A stretch of 4,241 nucleotides of DNA from IMG/VR virus record IMGVR_UViG_2778261564_000010. One strand, 5' to 3'. The notes under the pieces were generated by a model. The model saw only the letters and a program-made list of their open reading frames with translations, was not told the origin of the DNA and made no database searches. The DNA comes from a virus (Duplodnaviria; Heunggongvirae; Uroviricota; Caudoviricetes). Made by a program: the position numbers and the translations under genes. Below are positions 802-4,241 of the stretch, one piece after another (positions within the stretch are counted from its first letter, which is position 1; each line of letters starts with the position of its first letter).

Positions 802-1074
802 TTACCTCCAGATGCGTTGCTGGAATGTGCGGGATGGGCGCGGTGAGCGTTCGGAATAAGGGAGCCTGACATAGATTATCCAGTGACGATAATCGAGGCT
901 GAGGGCTTTCTTAATCTCGTATCCGCGTCTGCGGTAGTTATGAATTAGCCATTCGGCCTGTTCTTCAGTACATGGTGGGTGTTGGTACCAGTCGGTTTTA
1001 AATGCGTGTGAACGCCGCCCATGCCGGATGGCAAGGTCGGTATCAGAATTGTGAAATTTGGTTTTGTGCGCCAT
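802..1074 (-). CDS. Hypothetical prophage protein (90 aa)
   Basis: ATG-initiated ORF from the track (MAHKTKFHNSDTDLAIRHGRRSHAFKTDWYQHPPCTEEQAEWLIHNYRRRGYEIKK...). Its TAA stop at 802-804 lies 1 nt from the GTG start of the downstream long ORF, an operon-like junction. Its own SD is weak (GAGAAAAC) and the C-terminal 15 residues are R/P/S-rich, so the true extent is uncertain. Confidence 0.45.
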   Translation of the reverse strand: MAHKTKFHNSDTDLAIRHGRRSHAFKTDWYQHPPCTEEQAEWLIHNYRRRGYEIKKALSLDYRHWIIYVRLPYSERSPRPSRTFQQRIWR

Positions 1075-1140: not shown

Positions 1141-1173
1141 GCCAGGAAAAAACAAAACCCGCCGAAGCGGGTT
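1141..1173 (-). terminator. Rho-independent terminator at the 3' end of the hok transcript
   Basis: On the minus strand: 7-bp GC-rich stem (AACCCGC / GCGGGTT) with a UUCG tetraloop, followed directly by TTGTTTTTTCC. Confidence 0.6.
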
Positions 1174-1177
1174 AAGT

Positions 1178-1192
1178 GCGGGTGCGTTGAGG
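1178..1192 (-). promoter_or_regulatory. hok mRNA 3' fold-back element (fbi-like), complementary to the 5' end of the transcript
   Basis: Minus-strand 5'-CCTCAACGCACCCGC-3' is the near-perfect complement (one bulge) of minus-strand 5'-GCGGGTGCTTGAGG-3' at 1568-1555. This long-range 5'/3' pairing is the known hallmark of hok mRNAs. Confidence 0.5.
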
Positions 1193-1241
1193 ATGCCTGA
1201 CTCATCAGAGGTGGCGAGGGATTTCCCCCTCGCCTGGTCTC

Positions 1242-1397
1242 TTACTCCTCAGGTTCGTAAGCTGTGAAGACAGCGACCTCCGTCTGGCCGGTTCGGATTC
1301 GTACCTCGCAGAGGTCTTTCCTCGTTACCAGTGCCGTCACTATGACGGTTAAACAGATGACGATCAGGGCGATTAACATCGCCTTTTGCTGCTTCAT
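1242..1397 (-). CDS. hok: Hok/Gef-family type I toxin (HokD/RelF-like), 51 aa
   Basis: Hand translation: MKQQKAMLIALIVICLTVIVTALVTRKDLCEVRIRTGQTEVAVFTAYEPEE, ATG 1397 to TAA 1242-1244. SD AAGGAG lies 8 nt upstream. The protein matches my memory of E. coli HokD (RelF) and has the hydrophobic N-terminal helix and conserved Cys of the family. It is absent from the ORF track only because it is shorter than the track cutoff. Confidence 0.9.
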   Translation of the reverse strand: MKQQKAMLIALIVICLTVIVTALVTRKDLCEVRIRTGQTEVAVFTAYEPEE

Positions 1398-1453
1398 AGC
1401 CTGCTTCTCCTTGACCTTTCGGTCCGTAAGAGGCTAATCTCTATGTGTCGCAT
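1394..1453 (-). CDS. mok: mok-like leader ORF (19 codons), translationally coupled to hok
   Basis: ATG at 1453-1451 preceded by GAGG at the spacing seen in the plasmid R1 mok region. The frame ends in TGA overlapping the hok ATG as ATGA. Inferred by analogy with the R1 hok/mok/sok architecture; the ORF is much shorter than R1 mok. Confidence 0.4.
   Translation of the reverse strand: MRHIEISLLRTERSRRSRL
1411..1440 (+). promoter_or_regulatory. Candidate sok promoter
   Basis: Plus strand TTGACC (1411-1416), 17-18 nt spacer, then CTAATC/TAATCT (1434-1440). The -35 overlaps the complement of the hok SD, as in R1 (TTGCGC-N17-TATCCT, from memory). Confidence 0.45.
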
Positions 1454-1520
1454 AGATATGGCCTCAGATTAATGTTAAGCGTCTTGCAGGACGCGTAATG
1501 TTAACTGGGGCTTTTCTCTA
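1447..1520 (+). ncRNA. sok: Sok-like antisense RNA (approximate ends)
   Basis: Lies opposite the mok translation-initiation region. The 3' part contains a nested hairpin (GTTAA-GCGTC ... GACGC-...-TTAAC) followed by GGGGCTTTTCTCT, similar to what I recall of the R1 Sok 3' end. Boundaries are inferred, not measured. Confidence 0.4.
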
Positions 1521-1554
1521 TCTGCCTTTTGGTGTTCATGCCTGAGACAGATAG

Positions 1555-1601
1555 CCTCAAGCACCCGCAGTCATTCTACTTAACTAAGATTTCCCCGCAA
1601 A
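1555..1601 (-). promoter_or_regulatory. Candidate hok promoter and 5' tac-like element
   Basis: Minus strand TTGCGG (-35, plus 1596-1601), 16 nt spacer, TAGAAT (-10, plus 1574-1579), then GCGGGTGCTTGAGGCT (plus 1555-1568). The latter resembles the R1 hok mRNA 5' end GGCGCUUGAGGCU and is complementary to the 3' element at 1178-1192. Confidence 0.45.
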
Positions 1602-1655
1602 CCGTTTTTGTCCGGCACAGTAAATATCCAACTAAACCAATGGCGTTCGCTGTAT

Positions 1656-1835
1656 TTACCGCCAGTATTCAATGCACATGACCGCCATGAACACCCCTAA
1701 AAAAAGGGCATTTATATGTCCAAACATTAATATCAAAACATCAACTTTTTCCATATACCTTGCTGTGAAGATGATGGGCATACATGATGCGAACAACCAG
1801 AACGCAACAAACAAAAACTGCAATGCGTTTTTCAT
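1656..1835 (-). CDS. Possible small two-helix membrane protein (59 aa)
   Basis: Internal ATG at 1835 of the 1656..1874 track ORF (which begins at a GTG) is preceded by AGGGGGAATA. Translation is MKNALQFLFVAFWLFASCMPIIFTARYMEKVDVLILMFGHINALFLGVFMAVMCIEYWR, with two hydrophobic segments. The region is very AT-rich, so hydrophobic composition may be an artefact. Confidence 0.3.
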   Translation of the reverse strand: MKNALQFLFVAFWLFASCMPIIFTARYMEKVDVLILMFGHINALFLGVFMAVMCIEYWR

Positions 1836-2005
1836 TATTCCCCCTACAATCAATGTGCAATAACATTTAAACACACCTCAATTTAGCCGGACATATAAAT
1901 ATCTAAACCAGAAAAAATCACTTACATAGCGTTACAAACTCTTTAGTCTAAATATTCATCGTAAAACATTCCCCATACTTATCAGCCCGTTCTGCGCCAG
2001 GTAGC

Positions 2006-2293
2006 TCATTGCCTTATCTGGGAATCTGTAATCAGGTTTCCGGATGCTGGTGGATTTTCGCATTTTAGTTGTTCATAAAAGTGCACAGCTTTAACCAGTT
2101 CTTCTGATGTAACCGGGACTGGCGGGGCAGTGAATAAGGCCTGAATTTCATAGTTCGGCCTGTCGTTACAATCCTCTTTTTTCGGTACATATTTCCAGTC
2201 ACCAGACCACTACTTCCCCTGAAAGTCCGTAACGCCTTTTTTTCACGTAGCGATATCGCCATGCCACTGTTTTTGCTTGCCCCGCCGTTTCAT
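2006..2293 (-). pseudogene. Decayed reading frame with two in-frame stops
   Basis: One minus-strand frame starts at ATG 2293 (AGGAAGG upstream): MKRRGKQKQWHGDIAT-TGA(2243-2245)-KKGVTDFQGK-TAG(2210-2212)-WSGDWKYVPKKEDCNDRPNYEIQALFTAPPVPVTSEELVKAVHFYEQLKCENPPASGNLITDSQIRQ-TGA(2006-2008). The long 3' segment looks protein-like but has no usable start codon. Confidence 0.3.
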
Positions 2294-2317
2294 GCCCTTC
2301 CTGATAATTAACCTCGC

Positions 2318-2494
2318 TCATTCATCGCCCCACTCATCACAATATGCTTCGACCGGAGTTTTTCCTGCTTCATAATCATCACGCCATGCTTCAGCATCAG
2401 CAGCACTGCCACCACGTAACTCTGCATAGTCCATTAACAGTTCATGCCATTCTTCAAAACCGACGTTGTATTTAGTTGAACCAAAATCAGCCAT
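2318..2494 (-). CDS. Small acidic protein (58 aa), unknown function
   Basis: Hand translation: MADFGSTKYNVGFEEWHELLMDYAELRGGSAADAEAWRDDYEAGKTPVEAYCDEWGDE. The ATG overlaps the stop of the upstream gene (AAATGGCTGA) and GAGGAAG lies upstream. Absent from the track because it is under 60 aa. Weak motif similarity (KYN near the N-terminus, YCxxW near the C-terminus) to the 70-aa protein at 3767..3979. Confidence 0.5.
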   Translation of the reverse strand: MADFGSTKYNVGFEEWHELLMDYAELRGGSAADAEAWRDDYEAGKTPVEAYCDEWGDE

Positions 2495-2669
2495 TTTGTT
2501 CTTCCTCTTCGTCTTTTATTTCGTGATATGAGTAATTGCAGTAGTTAAAGAAAATATCTTTTGCTTCGTCATGTATTTCATCAGGCGTCGCATCATCATC
2601 CACTTCGAATTCATCCTCGAAATCTCCACCGGCTATTCCCGTTTCAATAATTATTTTAAACTTTCGCAT
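2487..2669 (-). CDS. Small, strongly acidic protein (60 aa), unknown function
   Basis: Track ORF with ATG start: MRKFKIIIETGIAGGDFEDEFEVDDDATPDEIHDEAKDIFFNYCNYSYHEIKDEEEEQNG, about one third D/E. The start codon sits 7 nt downstream of the H hairpin element. Coupled to the downstream 58-aa ORF. Confidence 0.6.
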   Translation of the reverse strand: MRKFKIIIETGIAGGDFEDEFEVDDDATPDEIHDEAKDIFFNYCNYSYHEIKDEEEEQNG

Positions 2670-2676
2670 TTAACTA

Positions 2677-2697
2677 CCGCCCTTTCGGGCGGCCTCC
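2677..2697 (-). promoter_or_regulatory. H element copy 2: GGAGG plus GC hairpin with GAAA loop, immediately 5' of a start codon
   Basis: Minus strand GGAGG-CCGCCC-GAAA-GGGCGG, then 7 nt, then ATG at 2669. The 23-nt core (plus strand taccgccctttcgggcggcctcc, 2675-2697) is identical to 3739-3761. Confidence 0.6.
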
Positions 2698-2724
2698 TGA
2701 TGTTCTGAGGGTGCAGAAATCCCT

Positions 2725-2781
2725 CCGGTTAAGGATTAAATTTTTAACAGAGCTAAATTTAATTATTCAGTTCTGGATTTT
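2725..2781 (-). promoter_or_regulatory. P' element: AT-rich conserved promoter/operator-like element with dyad symmetry
   Basis: Homologous to 3987-4048 (ccggttaaggattaaattttt...aatttaattattcag versus ccagttaaggattaaatttta...aacttaattattcag). Contains inverted repeat ATTAAATTT (2735-2743) / AAATTTAAT (2755-2763) with an 11-bp spacer. Overlaps the stop of the upstream 118-aa gene. Confidence 0.45.
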
Positions 2782-3119
2782 GTCGCCCTGCGTATCCGCG
2801 CTTTCGCGTTACGCTCAATCTGAATTAGCTTTTCTATATTTTTTCGCCTTTCCCGCTCCTCCTGACGCAAGAGCCTTACATCATCTGCCAGTCTGGTTTC
2901 TCTTTTCGCCACAGAGAGCATCCAGTCAAATGGTTCCACAACTGCACCGCAGATTTTACAGCGGACCTGACGCTCTTTTTCGTCAACCCGGACAGAGGCG
3001 TGATGACAATATGGTCTTTCCGATGGCTCATAAAGAAAATTAACCTGATTACGAGGGTCATCCTCTTTTACCGGAAATAAAACGATATTGCTTAACTCAT
3101 CCTCTGGTTTTATTTCCAT
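2763..3119 (-). CDS. Zinc-ribbon-like protein with basic helical C-terminus (118 aa), unknown function
   Basis: Track ORF 2763..3176 begins at a GTG immediately preceded by TGA. The preferred start is ATG 3119, preceded by AAGGAGAGGAGC. Translation: MEIKPEDELSNIVLFPVKEDDPRNQVNFLYEPSERPYCHHASVRVDEKERQVRCKICGAVVEPFDWMLSVAKRETRLADDVRLLRQEERERRKNIEKLIQIERNAKARIRRATKSRTE, with a C-H-H...C-x-x-C cluster followed by an Arg/Glu/Lys-rich tail. Confidence 0.65.
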   Translation of the reverse strand: MEIKPEDELSNIVLFPVKEDDPRNQVNFLYEPSERPYCHHASVRVDEKERQVRCKICGAVVEPFDWMLSVAKRETRLADDVRLLRQEERERRKNIEKLIQIERNAKARIRRATKSRTE

Positions 3120-3240
3120 GCTCCTCTCCTTTGATGCGAATGCCAGCGGTAATTGAAGCCTGATAGCTAATTTCACTCACAGTACCGCCTCCTGAAAATT
3201 TAATGAACAATTCAATACGTTCTTTGGTAATAGTGGTCAT
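3097..3240 (-). CDS. Small protein (47 aa), unknown function; overlaps the start of the downstream gene
   Basis: ATG 3240 preceded by AAGGAG at 6 nt, overlapping the TAA of the upstream gene. Translation: MTTITKERIELFIKFSGGGTVSEISYQASITAGIRIKGEEHGNKTRG. Ends at TGA 3097-3099, 23 nt past the ATG of the downstream gene in another frame. A diverged copy of this segment exists at 4051-4164. Confidence 0.4.
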   Translation of the reverse strand: MTTITKERIELFIKFSGGGTVSEISYQASITAGIRIKGEEHGNKTRG

Positions 3241-3250
3241 GTGTTACTCC

Positions 3251-3514
3251 TTAACCCGCAGTGCTTTCAACTGATGAGGGGAACAAAATCTTTTCATCAA
3301 ACCCTGCATTCATATCATGAACAGCAACACACCAATCCATCGACGAACGATTATCAAGAGCCTCCATGATTTCATCCATGCGGCGTAGGTCATACAGGTA
3401 AATGCTTTTATCGCCAATGGTGTAAAAGCCAATTTTTTTCGGTGATGGACAGCGCTCAAGAACTTCCTGTAATTCGTTCAACCATGCCCGTTCTTTTTTT
3501 GTCAAAGTTGCCAT
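3251..3514 (-). CDS. Hypothetical protein (87 aa)
   Basis: Track ORF 3251..3604 begins at a TTG. The preferred start is ATG 3514, preceded by AAGGAA, 1 nt after the stop of the upstream gene. Translation: MATLTKKERAWLNELQEVLERCPSPKKIGFYTIGDKSIYLYDLRRMDEIMEALDNRSSMDWCVAVHDMNAGFDEKILFPSSVESTAG. Confidence 0.65.
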   Translation of the reverse strand: MATLTKKERAWLNELQEVLERCPSPKKIGFYTIGDKSIYLYDLRRMDEIMEALDNRSSMDWCVAVHDMNAGFDEKILFPSSVESTAG

Positions 3515-3515
3515 A

Positions 3516-3734
3516 TCAGTTTTCCTTATACGGATTAATTTTATTGTGCAGTGTGTTGAATGACGCCCATACCACGTCGTTATACAATTCAGTAACTGGC
3601 TCAATTATTTTCCCGATTGCCCAGACAAAAATTAGAGGGGATATCGGTATCATCAATACGATAAACAGAATGAGAAACAAAAATTCTGTCGCCCTACTTT
3701 TTTGCGGATATTCTTTTCTGAATAATGTAGTCAT
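3516..3734 (-). CDS. Small single-pass membrane protein (72 aa), unknown function
   Basis: Track ORF with ATG start, 6 nt downstream of the H hairpin element. Translation: MTTLFRKEYPQKSRATEFLFLILFIVLMIPISPLIFVWAIGKIIEPVTELYNDVVWASFNTLHNKINPYKEN, with one hydrophobic helix at about residues 17-41 flanked by charged residues. The stop is adjacent to the start of the 87-aa gene. Confidence 0.6.
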   Translation of the reverse strand: MTTLFRKEYPQKSRATEFLFLILFIVLMIPISPLIFVWAIGKIIEPVTELYNDVVWASFNTLHNKINPYKEN

Positions 3735-3740
3735 TTCTTA

Positions 3741-3761
3741 CCGCCCTTTCGGGCGGCCTCC
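3741..3761 (-). promoter_or_regulatory. H element copy 1: GGAGG plus GC hairpin with GAAA loop, immediately 5' of a start codon
   Basis: Minus strand GGAGG-CCGCCC-GAAA-GGGCGG, then 6 nt (TAAGAA), then ATG at 3734. The 23-nt core is identical to copy 2 although the flanking genes are unrelated. Confidence 0.6.
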
Positions 3762-3766
3762 CGACA

Positions 3767-3979
3767 TTAATCGTTGTGGTAACTCATGGCTTCATTTGCA
3801 GCATCAACCGGATCAACCTCCCACCAGCAATAATTTGGTGCGTTTCCTTCAGGTGTCCACGGTTCCAATTCATTTTTTGCCACATTCTCGTCGCCAGTAA
3901 TTTTAAAAATCTGCTCAGAGAATTTTTTCACCCACTCGTTATATTTTTCAGTGTTAATAATTTTCTGTGTATTTGACAT
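3767..3979 (-). CDS. Small acidic protein (70 aa), unknown function
   Basis: Track ORF with ATG start preceded by GGAGGT at about 7 nt. Translation: MSNTQKIINTEKYNEWVKKFSEQIFKITGDENVAKNELEPWTPEGNAPNYCWWEVDPVDAANEAMSYHND. Lies immediately downstream of the P element. Confidence 0.65.
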   Translation of the reverse strand: MSNTQKIINTEKYNEWVKKFSEQIFKITGDENVAKNELEPWTPEGNAPNYCWWEVDPVDAANEAMSYHND

Positions 3980-3986
3980 AGATATA

Positions 3987-4048
3987 CCTCCAGTTAAGGA
4001 TTAAATTTTATTTACAGTGCTGAACTTAATTATTCAGATTTGGATTAT
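3987..4048 (-). promoter_or_regulatory. P element: AT-rich promoter/operator-like element upstream of the 70-aa gene
   Basis: Second copy of the roughly 60-bp conserved element (see 2725-2781). Ends in the GGAGG used as SD for the ATG at 3979. Contains TGTAAATAAAAT, a possible -10-like sequence. No transcription start can be called confidently. Confidence 0.4.
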
Positions 4049-4050
4049 GC

Positions 4051-4164
4051 TTTCTCTTCACGAAGTTCCGATTGTTAATTTGGCTCACAACAGCACCTTC
4101 TGAAAATTACCCTGATAGAAAGCCAGTACACGCTGCATAGCTTCGCTCTTCCGGCACTCGCTAC
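4051..4164 (-). other. Degenerate partial third copy of the cassette, truncated by the IS
   Basis: Minus-strand ...TAATTTTCAGAAGGTGCTGTTGTGAGCCAAATTAACAATCGG... aligns with the 3180-3215 region (...AAATTTTCAGGAGGCGGTACTGTGAGTGAAATTAGCTATCAGG...) but with frame-disrupting differences, and then joins directly to sequence resembling the last codons of the 118-aa gene. No intact ORF. Confidence 0.4.
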
Positions 4165-4241
4165 TGAACCGCCCCGGGAATCCTGGAGACTAAACTCCCT
4201 GAGAAAGAGGTAAACAGGATGACTAAAAATACACGTTTTTC
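4165..4241 (+). mobile_element. IS3-family insertion sequence, left end (IS629/IS1203-like), continues beyond window
   Basis: TGAACCGCCCCGGGAATCCTGGAGACTAAACTCCCTGAGAAAGAGGTAAACAGG followed by ATGACTAAAAATACACGTTTTTC matches my memory of the IS629/IS1203 left terminal repeat and orfA start. Unverified recall. Confidence 0.7.
4219..4241 (+). CDS. IS3-family transposase OrfA, first 7 codons only
   Basis: ATG at 4219 preceded by GAGG; translation MTKNTRF... Partial at the window edge. Confidence 0.65.

Follow-up and report, generated by a model that had tools for sequence, protein, structure and literature searches.

The AT-rich stretch and its open reading frame

We analyzed 4,241 nucleotides (nt) of a Caudoviricetes virus record (IMG/VR record IMGVR_UViG_2778261564_000010), the whole of which is called the window here, and within it a stretch at positions 1600-2005 that is rich in adenine and thymine (AT-rich). 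A preliminary description of the sequence had placed this stretch between a decayed open reading frame (ORF) and a hok toxin locus, which holds, the decayed gene occupying 1956-2321 and the hok coding sequence 1242-1397. It had also pointed to an ORF of 59 codons behind a G-rich Shine-Dalgarno (SD) sequence, and this element, termed ORF59, is indeed present on the minus strand. We consider it probable that the core of the stretch is a genuine unannotated gene for a two-helix membrane protein and that it forms an accessory cassette of the prophage nin region, directly upstream of hok/sok. The features of the stretch itself are the following.

1656-1835, minus strand: ORF59, 59 codons and a TAA stop, MKNALQFLFVAFWLFASCMPIIFTARYMEKVDVLILMFGHINALFLGVFMAVMCIEYWR (from the ORF list and the comparison with the paralogue of lineage B, introduced below)
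1845-1840, minus strand: SD sequence AGGGGG, 4 nt before the ATG at 1835
1699-1705, minus strand: homopolymer of seven T (T7 run) in codons 44-46 of ORF59, a frameshift-prone site
1836-1955, minus strand: AT-rich spacer from the stop of the upstream pseudogene to ORF59, 120 nt, fraction of guanine plus cytosine (GC) 0.308
1601-1655, minus strand: spacer from the ORF59 stop to the hok promoter, no terminator, folding z-score -0.73, first ~40 nt alignable with lineage B

The composition of the stretch had been described as a sharp shift towards AT-rich DNA. The drop itself was confirmed, with a GC content of 0.382 in 1600-2005 against 0.538 in 1-1400, and tracts of at least 6 A or T bases are denser (27 per kb, compared with 6 in 1-1400 and 18 in 2006-4241). 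However, the shift is a gradient across ~400 nt rather than a sharp step, and the right-hand part of the window is also AT-rich (0.423 in 2006-4241), so that 1600-2005 is the low point of this part and not an isolated island. The sliding-window profile that had been suggested as a check showed the fall, from 0.545 at 1201-1400 to 0.345 at 1701-1900 in a 200-nt profile; only 4.6% of 406-nt sliding windows have a lower GC content than 1600-2005, and the minimum starts at 1577.

Within ORF59, GC content at codon positions 1, 2 and 3 is 0.36, 0.29 and 0.53, and 31 of the 59 second positions are T. The value at third positions is close to the overall GC content of the left module (0.54), whereas the true spacer at 1836-1955 is at 0.31. 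The AT-richness of ORF59 thus results largely from T at the second positions of codons for Phe, Leu, Ile, Met and Val, the product being very hydrophobic. The same codon usage accounts for the local positive AT skew of the plus strand. The stretch is therefore AT-rich from two causes, hydrophobic codons and the 120-nt upstream spacer, and plainly AT-rich non-coding DNA is limited to the spacers, 120 nt upstream and 55 nt downstream of ORF59.

ORF59 is nested in a 72-codon ORF with a GTG start (1656..1874). We rejected this longer form, because its 13-codon extension (1836-1874) is as variable as a spacer, contains an indel and is absent in lineage B. The SD sequence is polymorphic at 1842: the window has AGGGGG, whereas many other haplotypes carry the consensus AGGAGG. 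An additional G is present at 1845 in locus L010. In lineage B the SD sequence is AGGGA, 6 nt before the ATG at 4001 of locus L138. The T7 run has seven T in 274 copies and six T in 3 copies.

A second lineage and the coding signature

We use lineage A for the type found in the window and lineage B for a diverged paralogue, which was found by a tblastn search of a plasmid collection as a 59-residue match with 44% identity over residues 1-59 (E = 9e-12). The two lineage-B "plasmids" in the collection are really pieces of chromosome. Lineage B sits in a prophage remnant between ttcA and uspF, in ST131 and, as identical copies of the locus, in strains that include Nissle 1917, ATCC 25922 and clone D. 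The remnant (locus L139, 1552-3737; locus L305, 72-3521) is heavily deleted, and what is left includes pieces of the genes for an integrase, a DUF1627 protein, Hok and a sitD-like permease; one genome has a complete sitABCD-like metal transporter operon directly next to it. ORF59 is the sole intact small gene of the lineage-B remnant, the integrase, DUF1627, hok and sitD-like genes all being broken.

The lineage-B protein, MRKILMYLCISIWIVISCVPIILTSEYLTEASIMALMFGHANALCIGVFISIIYIECWR, has the same start, stop and 59 codons as that of lineage A, with no gaps. The two coding sequences differ at 71 of 177 nt (60% nucleotide identity) without an indel, while 26 of the 59 residues are identical (44%), and 14 of these 26 are encoded by different codons. 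Identity follows the codon frame, with 35, 42 and 29 of 59 matches at the first, second and third positions. The proportion of nonsynonymous differences (pN) is 0.32 and that of synonymous differences (pS) 0.72, at which synonymous sites are saturated. When the 71 differences were placed at random, at least 26 identical residues were retained with P = 0.0009 and a frame free of stops with P = 0.03; both together occurred in 0 of 20,000 trials. In a six-frame test, the frame of ORF59 was the only one open in both lineages and reached a BLOSUM62 sum of 164 versus 4-64 in the other five. Its flanks are weakly alignable between the lineages and need several indels, as does the spacer at 1836-1955, whereas ORF59 needs none. 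Given this conservation at the protein level, we judge ORF59 very likely to be a real gene.

The opposite strand carries an ORF of 63 amino acids (window 1672-1863, plus strand), annotated as "hornerin" with 83 amino acids in ON470612 (locus L002, 5280-5531, plus strand) and ON470619; PV340562 (locus L003, 4279-4530, plus strand) lists it as a hypothetical protein. That this ORF is the real gene would agree with its annotation in these three records and with its open frame in lineage A. We rejected it, because its frame contains two stops in lineage B, where that strand has no ORF of at least 40 amino acids; identity in this frame is 18 of 59 and the BLOSUM sum 62 versus 164. It also runs antisense to the whole operon, and its one family match is at noise level (E-value 0.43). 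We regard this reading as extremely unlikely, and the "hornerin" annotation is probably a mis-annotation, given the two stops.

Polymorphism within the lineages was assessed in 286 pooled copies of lineage A and 12 of lineage B. ORF59 is intact in 275 of the 281 complete lineage-A copies. Variable sites comprise 12 nonsynonymous sites and 1 synonymous singleton in lineage A, and 2 nonsynonymous and 0 synonymous sites in lineage B. In the first alignment, of 123 loci, all 10 variable sites of ORF59 were nonsynonymous, and its frame had fewer synonymous changes than any other frame. At most 1 synonymous change among 15 sites is expected with P = 0.08-0.19 under neutrality and with P <= 0.009 if the ratio of nonsynonymous to synonymous rates (dN/dS) is at most 0.5. 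Common variable sites are about fourfold rarer in ORF59 than in the adjacent spacers (Fisher p = 0.007), the spacer at 1836-1955 having 14 variable sites and an indel at 1845. Since recent polymorphism is almost all nonsynonymous (14:1), constraint on ORF59 looks relaxed now; the pattern may reflect either relaxed selection in defective prophages (with flank diversity inflated by recombination) or diversifying selection. The preliminary description had taken a lack of preference for synonymous changes in homologous regions as a sign of non-coding DNA. Such a lack is found within lineage A (12 nonsynonymous to 1 synonymous) but not between the lineages (pN 0.32, pS 0.72), and the comparison between lineages is the more informative of the two.

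The lineage-A segment occurs in 1570 of 5426 complete Escherichia coli genomes, always at 96% identity or more and with nothing more distant, and lineage B in 1043 of the 5426 (at least 80% coverage, at least 99% identity); the gene is found in about half of complete E. coli genomes. Carriers include Nissle 1917, ATCC 25922, ST131 and ATCC 8739. Among 50,697 phage records, 3 carry the lineage-A segment. Word-indexed protein searches with each lineage returned E. coli and Shigella proteins only, some of them frameshifted, and neither retrieved the other lineage. An exhaustive HMMER profile search of 1.84 billion representatives gave lineages A and B and fragments, with no third lineage; two long hydrophobic proteins were rejected as noise, as their matches consisted of many short segments. 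Queried with the family alignment, IMG/VR and the JGI metagenomes likewise yielded lineages A and B only. A degenerate N-terminal pattern matched only E. coli and Shigella among GTDB species representatives, though this pattern is specific to lineage A and would miss others. The family looks restricted to prophages of E. coli and Shigella.

The competing view is that the stretch is a non-coding AT-rich junction between mosaic modules, bounded at ~1610 and ~2030, in which ORF59 is open by chance. Several observations favor this view and weigh against a gene. The length of ORF59 alone is indistinguishable from chance: among 5000 shuffles of 1600-2005, an ORF of at least 59 codons with an ATG start arose in 9.7% and a stop-free run of 75 codons in 18% (P ~ 0.1-0.18), so that the initial remark that the stretch has no convincing long ORF was fair. 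The Prokaryotic Genome Annotation Pipeline (PGAP) annotates nothing at ORF59 in 10 of 10 RefSeq records examined (9 of lineage A, 1 of lineage B). Searches of Pfam, PHROGs, NCBIfam, PADLOC (0 families) and PDB sequences gave no match for the 59- or 72-residue ORF or for the antisense 63-residue ORF. The ORF59 peptide turned up neither in the 8.3 million papers searched nor in the Sakai small-gene (Ribo-seq) supplements. No relatives outside E. coli and Shigella were found in the representatives, GTDB, IMG/VR and JGI scans. Neither a promoter nor a terminator of its own was detected at the scan threshold. Frameshift alleles exist, several database protein clusters diverging directly after "NALF", which corresponds to the T7 run. 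The changes within the lineages (14 nonsynonymous to 1 synonymous; 12 to 1 in lineage A) give no sign of purifying selection, the test between lineages rests on two lineages with saturated synonymous sites, and the topology, partner and role of the protein are inferred.

The non-coding view, first suggested by dN/dS within lineages, was overturned by the comparison with lineage B, which keeps start, stop and all 59 codons without an indel at 60% nucleotide identity. The frame is the sole one open in both lineages, amino-acid identity is far above that of random placement, an SD sequence precedes the ORF in both, indels are confined to the flanks, and GC content at third positions is 0.53 versus 0.31 in the true spacer. 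We therefore consider a chance open frame improbable.

The prophage context and the linkage to hok

The chromosomes of E. coli CFSAN061770 and of at least 11 further strains match region 1400-2300 at 100% identity, and the window represents the nin region of a Qin-like lambdoid E. coli prophage. According to the CFSAN061770 annotation, the prophage carries, in order, the repressor gene cI, cro, ydaT, replication genes, DUF1627, DUF977 and small genes, then the frameshifted gene, the gap, hokD, the rem-like gene, DUF968 (ydfU), RusA and the Q-side genes; this order is shared with the record of phage vB_EcoS-640R1. From cro to the Q-side genes all are on the minus strand of the window, with the exception of one small plus-strand ORF over the rem-like gene. 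PGAP annotates this ORF (1021-1200, 59 amino acids, WP_001112736.1, phrog_2947) overlapping the 5' end of the rem-like gene; it heads toward the hok terminator, antisense to the operon. The neighbors of the stretch are as follows.

off the left end to 800, minus strand: DUF968 (ydfU) gene, from the annotation
802-1074, minus strand: rem-like gene, from the annotation
1156-1600, minus strand: hok/sok cassette as a whole, left neighbor of the AT-rich stretch
1156-1173, minus strand: intrinsic terminator of the hok transcript (3' end), 7-bp stem with 5 GC pairs and a T-run
1242-1397, minus strand: hokD toxin gene, 51 amino acids (Pfam PF01848 HOK_GEF, E = 1.2e-23, 82.9 bits; PGAP WP_000813254.1, "type I toxin-antitoxin system toxin HokD")
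1395-1566, minus strand: leader of the hok mRNA, including the mok/sok region (full-model Rfam match to RF01794 sok, 106.7 bits, E = 2.1e-24)
1573-1600, minus strand: putative hok promoter, -35 TTGCGG at 1600-1595, 16-nt spacer, -10 TAGAAT at 1578-1573
1956-2321, minus strand: decayed upstream gene (PGAP pseudogene, "frameshifted; internal stop")

The putative hok promoter was placed by eye, anchored on the start of the Rfam model at 1566, and scores below the threshold of the promoter scan; its -10 element is followed after 6 nt by the tac element GGGTGCTTGA at 1566. An isrK-like Rfam match at 1152-1233 (minus strand), over the hok 3' end and terminator, is sub-threshold (26 bits, E = 0.01; gathering score 50). 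Intact relatives of the decayed gene encode 204 amino acids (locus L005, 2857-3471) and 171 amino acids (locus L010, 2858-3373) and match phrog_14306 and phrog_660, both families of unknown function. The two share only a C-terminal domain of ~48 residues (phrog_660, 924, 8171, 30109).

The preliminary description had proposed that the stretch may be a junction between modules of different origin. This was supported in part. Homology of the hok cassette to Shiga toxin (Stx) phages (933W, VT2-Sakai and others) ends at ~1609-1613, just past the hok -35 element, and these phages carry unrelated genes upstream of hok. On the right side, many loci lose homology at 2025-2042, a cluster of mosaic breakpoints within the last ~25 codons of the upstream gene and inside its C-terminal domain. 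The AT-richness, in contrast, is no mark of foreign non-coding DNA, as the hydrophobic codons of ORF59 account for it within the gene. ORF59 travels in a conserved block that includes the final ~25 codons of the decayed gene (1956-2040) and comprises, besides this C-terminus, the intervening spacer, ORF59 itself and the leader of hok.

ORF59 is never found apart from a hok leader or a remnant of hok, except where an insertion sequence or a deletion cuts in. In Qin prophages of the ATCC 8739 and ECOR13 type (loci L004 and L003), an ISNCY transposase fragment replaces the hok coding sequence exactly at its start codon (1396), and these loci keep the hok leader/sok region and ORF59. In lineage B, a fragment of the hok coding sequence with an internal stop lies 55 nt past the ORF59 stop (locus L138, 4235-4300) and is 80% identical to window 1329-1264. 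Because a hok fragment follows ORF59 in lineage B also, the linkage is older than the split of the lineages. The reverse does not apply: the hok-leader query matched 4567 genomes versus 1570 for the ORF59 segment, most hok loci being without it. As expected of a nin accessory cassette, ORF59 lies between the replication genes and Q, is co-oriented with them and shows a mosaic of presence and absence. It is not a moron in the strict sense, with no promoter or terminator of its own at the scan threshold and no T-run hairpin before the hok promoter.

The stretch had also been suggested to be a regulatory or structural region, and we considered whether a small RNA, a leader, a terminator region or a silencer bound by H-NS might be conserved here as sequence rather than as protein. 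Such an element would fit the AT-richness typical of H-NS targets, the position directly upstream of the hok promoter, and the finding that common polymorphisms are fewer in the ORF than in its flanks and, where present, not synonymous. The searches did not bear it out. At permissive E-values, Rfam matched only the hok/sok leader, the sub-threshold isrK-like sequence and small nucleolar RNA (snoRNA) noise, and in 1600-1955 at E <= 1 nothing besides one spurious snoRNA match. Scans for promoters, terminators, tandem repeats, transfer RNAs and inverted repeats gave nothing in 1600-1955, although the promoter, terminator and antisense scans are crude and absence in them is no proof. On the plus strand of 1100-2400, the only promoter-like site lies at 2349 and no terminator was found, none of either being in 1600-1960; in lineage B, 6 antisense promoter-like sites compare with 5.7 in shuffles, which is no excess. 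RNA folds of both spacers in both lineages had z-scores of -0.7 to -2.0, none significant and no hairpin shared. For the spacer at 1836-1955 the z-score was -1.97, not conserved in lineage B, and no promoter-like site reached the threshold. Furthermore, conservation between the lineages follows the codon frame (position 2 > 1 > 3) and amino-acid similarity is found in frame 0 only, a pattern not to be expected of an RNA or DNA element; most hok loci also do without the segment. A regulatory or RNA element is accordingly very unlikely.

Two repeats were observed elsewhere in the window. A 26-nt repeat (96% identical) at 2675-2700 and 3739-3764 reads GGAGG-CCGCCC-GAAA-GGGCGG-TA on the minus strand and lies directly 5' of the start codons of two small genes, 2487-2669 (DUF7167) and 3516-3734 (DUF4014). 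It looks like a common leader made up of an SD sequence and a hairpin. An intergenic sequence of ~70 nt occurs at 2715-2782 and again, 1265 nt away, at 3980-4049 (81-90% identity), which points to duplication or recombination of a gene-boundary element within the nin region.

The predicted protein and its relation to known systems

The hydropathy profile of the ORF59 protein shows two hydrophobic segments with a dip at residues 24-32, and the grand average of hydropathy (GRAVY) is 1.19 in lineage A and 1.37 in lineage B. AlphaFold2, run with a nine-sequence alignment, predicted helices at residues 2-26 and 28-58 with a mean predicted local distance difference test (pLDDT) score of 73. The predicted non-membrane parts amount to ~4 N-terminal residues, a loop of ~8 and 4 C-terminal residues. 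Invariant in the alignment are M1, L5, L8, W13, S17, C18, P20, I21, I22 and T24, followed by L36, F38, G39, N42, A43, L44, E56, W58 and R59. The protein is thus predicted to form a two-pass hairpin in the inner membrane. The earlier suggestion of a small membrane protein was well founded in that the protein is kept in lineage B and is predicted to be a hydrophobic two-helix hairpin. A Foldseek search against viral structures returned only generic hairpins, all with E > 1.

Based on these predictions, we propose a working model. ORF59 would be transcribed with the operon from the early rightward promoter as a delayed-early gene, since no promoter or terminator of its own is detectable, and the operon transcript would therefore run on into the hok leader. 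Translation would start from its own SD sequence, and the protein would insert into the inner membrane as a hairpin with both ends in the cytoplasm, an orientation suggested under the positive-inside rule by the charges of the lineage-B protein (N-terminal Arg-Lys, acidic loop, C-terminal Arg). There it may act by helix-helix contact with another membrane protein. Candidate contact residues are the conserved small and polar positions of helix 1 (S17-C18-x-P20-I-I-x-T24) and, in helix 2 and at the end, F38-G39-(H/Y)40-x-N42-A-L, G47 and the C-terminal I-E-x-W-R. A modulator or exclusion-type role is ranked first, above that of a pore-forming toxin, on inferred grounds.

The partner might be Hok itself, with ORF59 modulating Hok at the membrane (immunity, gating or co-toxicity), or read-through from ORF59 might tune hok expression. 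Both lineages have ORF59 and hok side by side even though synonymous sites have diverged to saturation, and no terminator lies between the two genes; we nevertheless rate this idea as a long shot. If true, a type I toxin with a partner at the protein level would be a novelty.

A toxin or an exclusion factor had been named as examples in the preliminary description. ORF59 could encode a small membrane toxin of the type I style or a holin-like killer, perhaps as a second killer module beside hok, as it is small, very hydrophobic (GRAVY 1.2-1.4) and prophage-borne and adjoins a bona fide type I toxin in both lineages. However, no Hok/Gef, holin or other toxin family matched at E <= 1, the Pfam search having been run with the 72-residue form that contains ORF59. 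Crude scans by Rfam, promoter, terminator and fold gave no signal of an antisense RNA gene, and the two helices lack the charged tail usual in such toxins. The gene is also intact in 1043 genomes within a remnant without a recognizable regulator and lies outside the lysis cassette. A killer function thus appears doubtful, and its identity as a holin was excluded by this position and the lack of a profile match.

As it stands, ORF59 is an ordinary accessory gene for a small hydrophobic prophage protein of a familiar sort. As a gene it would add one concrete member, found in no family library, to the under-annotated small membrane proteome of E. coli, and it would correct the antisense "hornerin" annotation in phage records. 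The AT-rich gap beside the toxin locus may be no more than the trace left by a hydrophobic coding sequence. Any action of the protein on Hok, phage entry or a host membrane protein would make it relevant to prophage-host biology.

Among known systems, the nearest in position is Hok/Gef (PF01848). Like it, ORF59 encodes a small hydrophobic, predicted inner-membrane protein borne by lambdoid prophages, and it is linked to hok in both lineages. It differs in that Pfam gave no sequence match and two helices are predicted, where Hok/Gef toxins have a single helix and a periplasmic tail; crude scans picked up neither a mok-like leader ORF nor a fold-back mRNA or a Sok-like antisense RNA. Class II holins and pinholins of lambdoid phages, such as S21 of phage 21, have 60-70 residues and two transmembrane helices. 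ORF59 resembles them in its phage origin, similar size and two predicted transmembrane helices, but it lies in the nin region, ~2.5 kb upstream of the Q-side genes and not in the lysis cassette, has neither a dual-start motif nor a charged C-terminal tail, and matches no holin profile in Pfam or PHROGs.

Phages also encode small inner-membrane proteins of superinfection exclusion, such as T4 Imm and HK97 gp15. ORF59 differs from these in lacking a sequence or profile match and a detected promoter of its own. It shares with them the tiny size, the predicted inner-membrane location and the nature of an optional cassette, present or absent in related phages, and most of its recent changes replace amino acids, which would suit a protein that encounters other phages. 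The small E. coli membrane regulators AcrZ, MgrB and KdpF are mostly single-pass and belong to the core genome, with known partners, whereas ORF59 is predicted to be two-pass, is prophage-borne and is found in E. coli and Shigella only. In common with them, it has fewer than 60 residues, lies almost wholly within the predicted membrane, retains conserved small and polar residues and has been missed by annotation pipelines.

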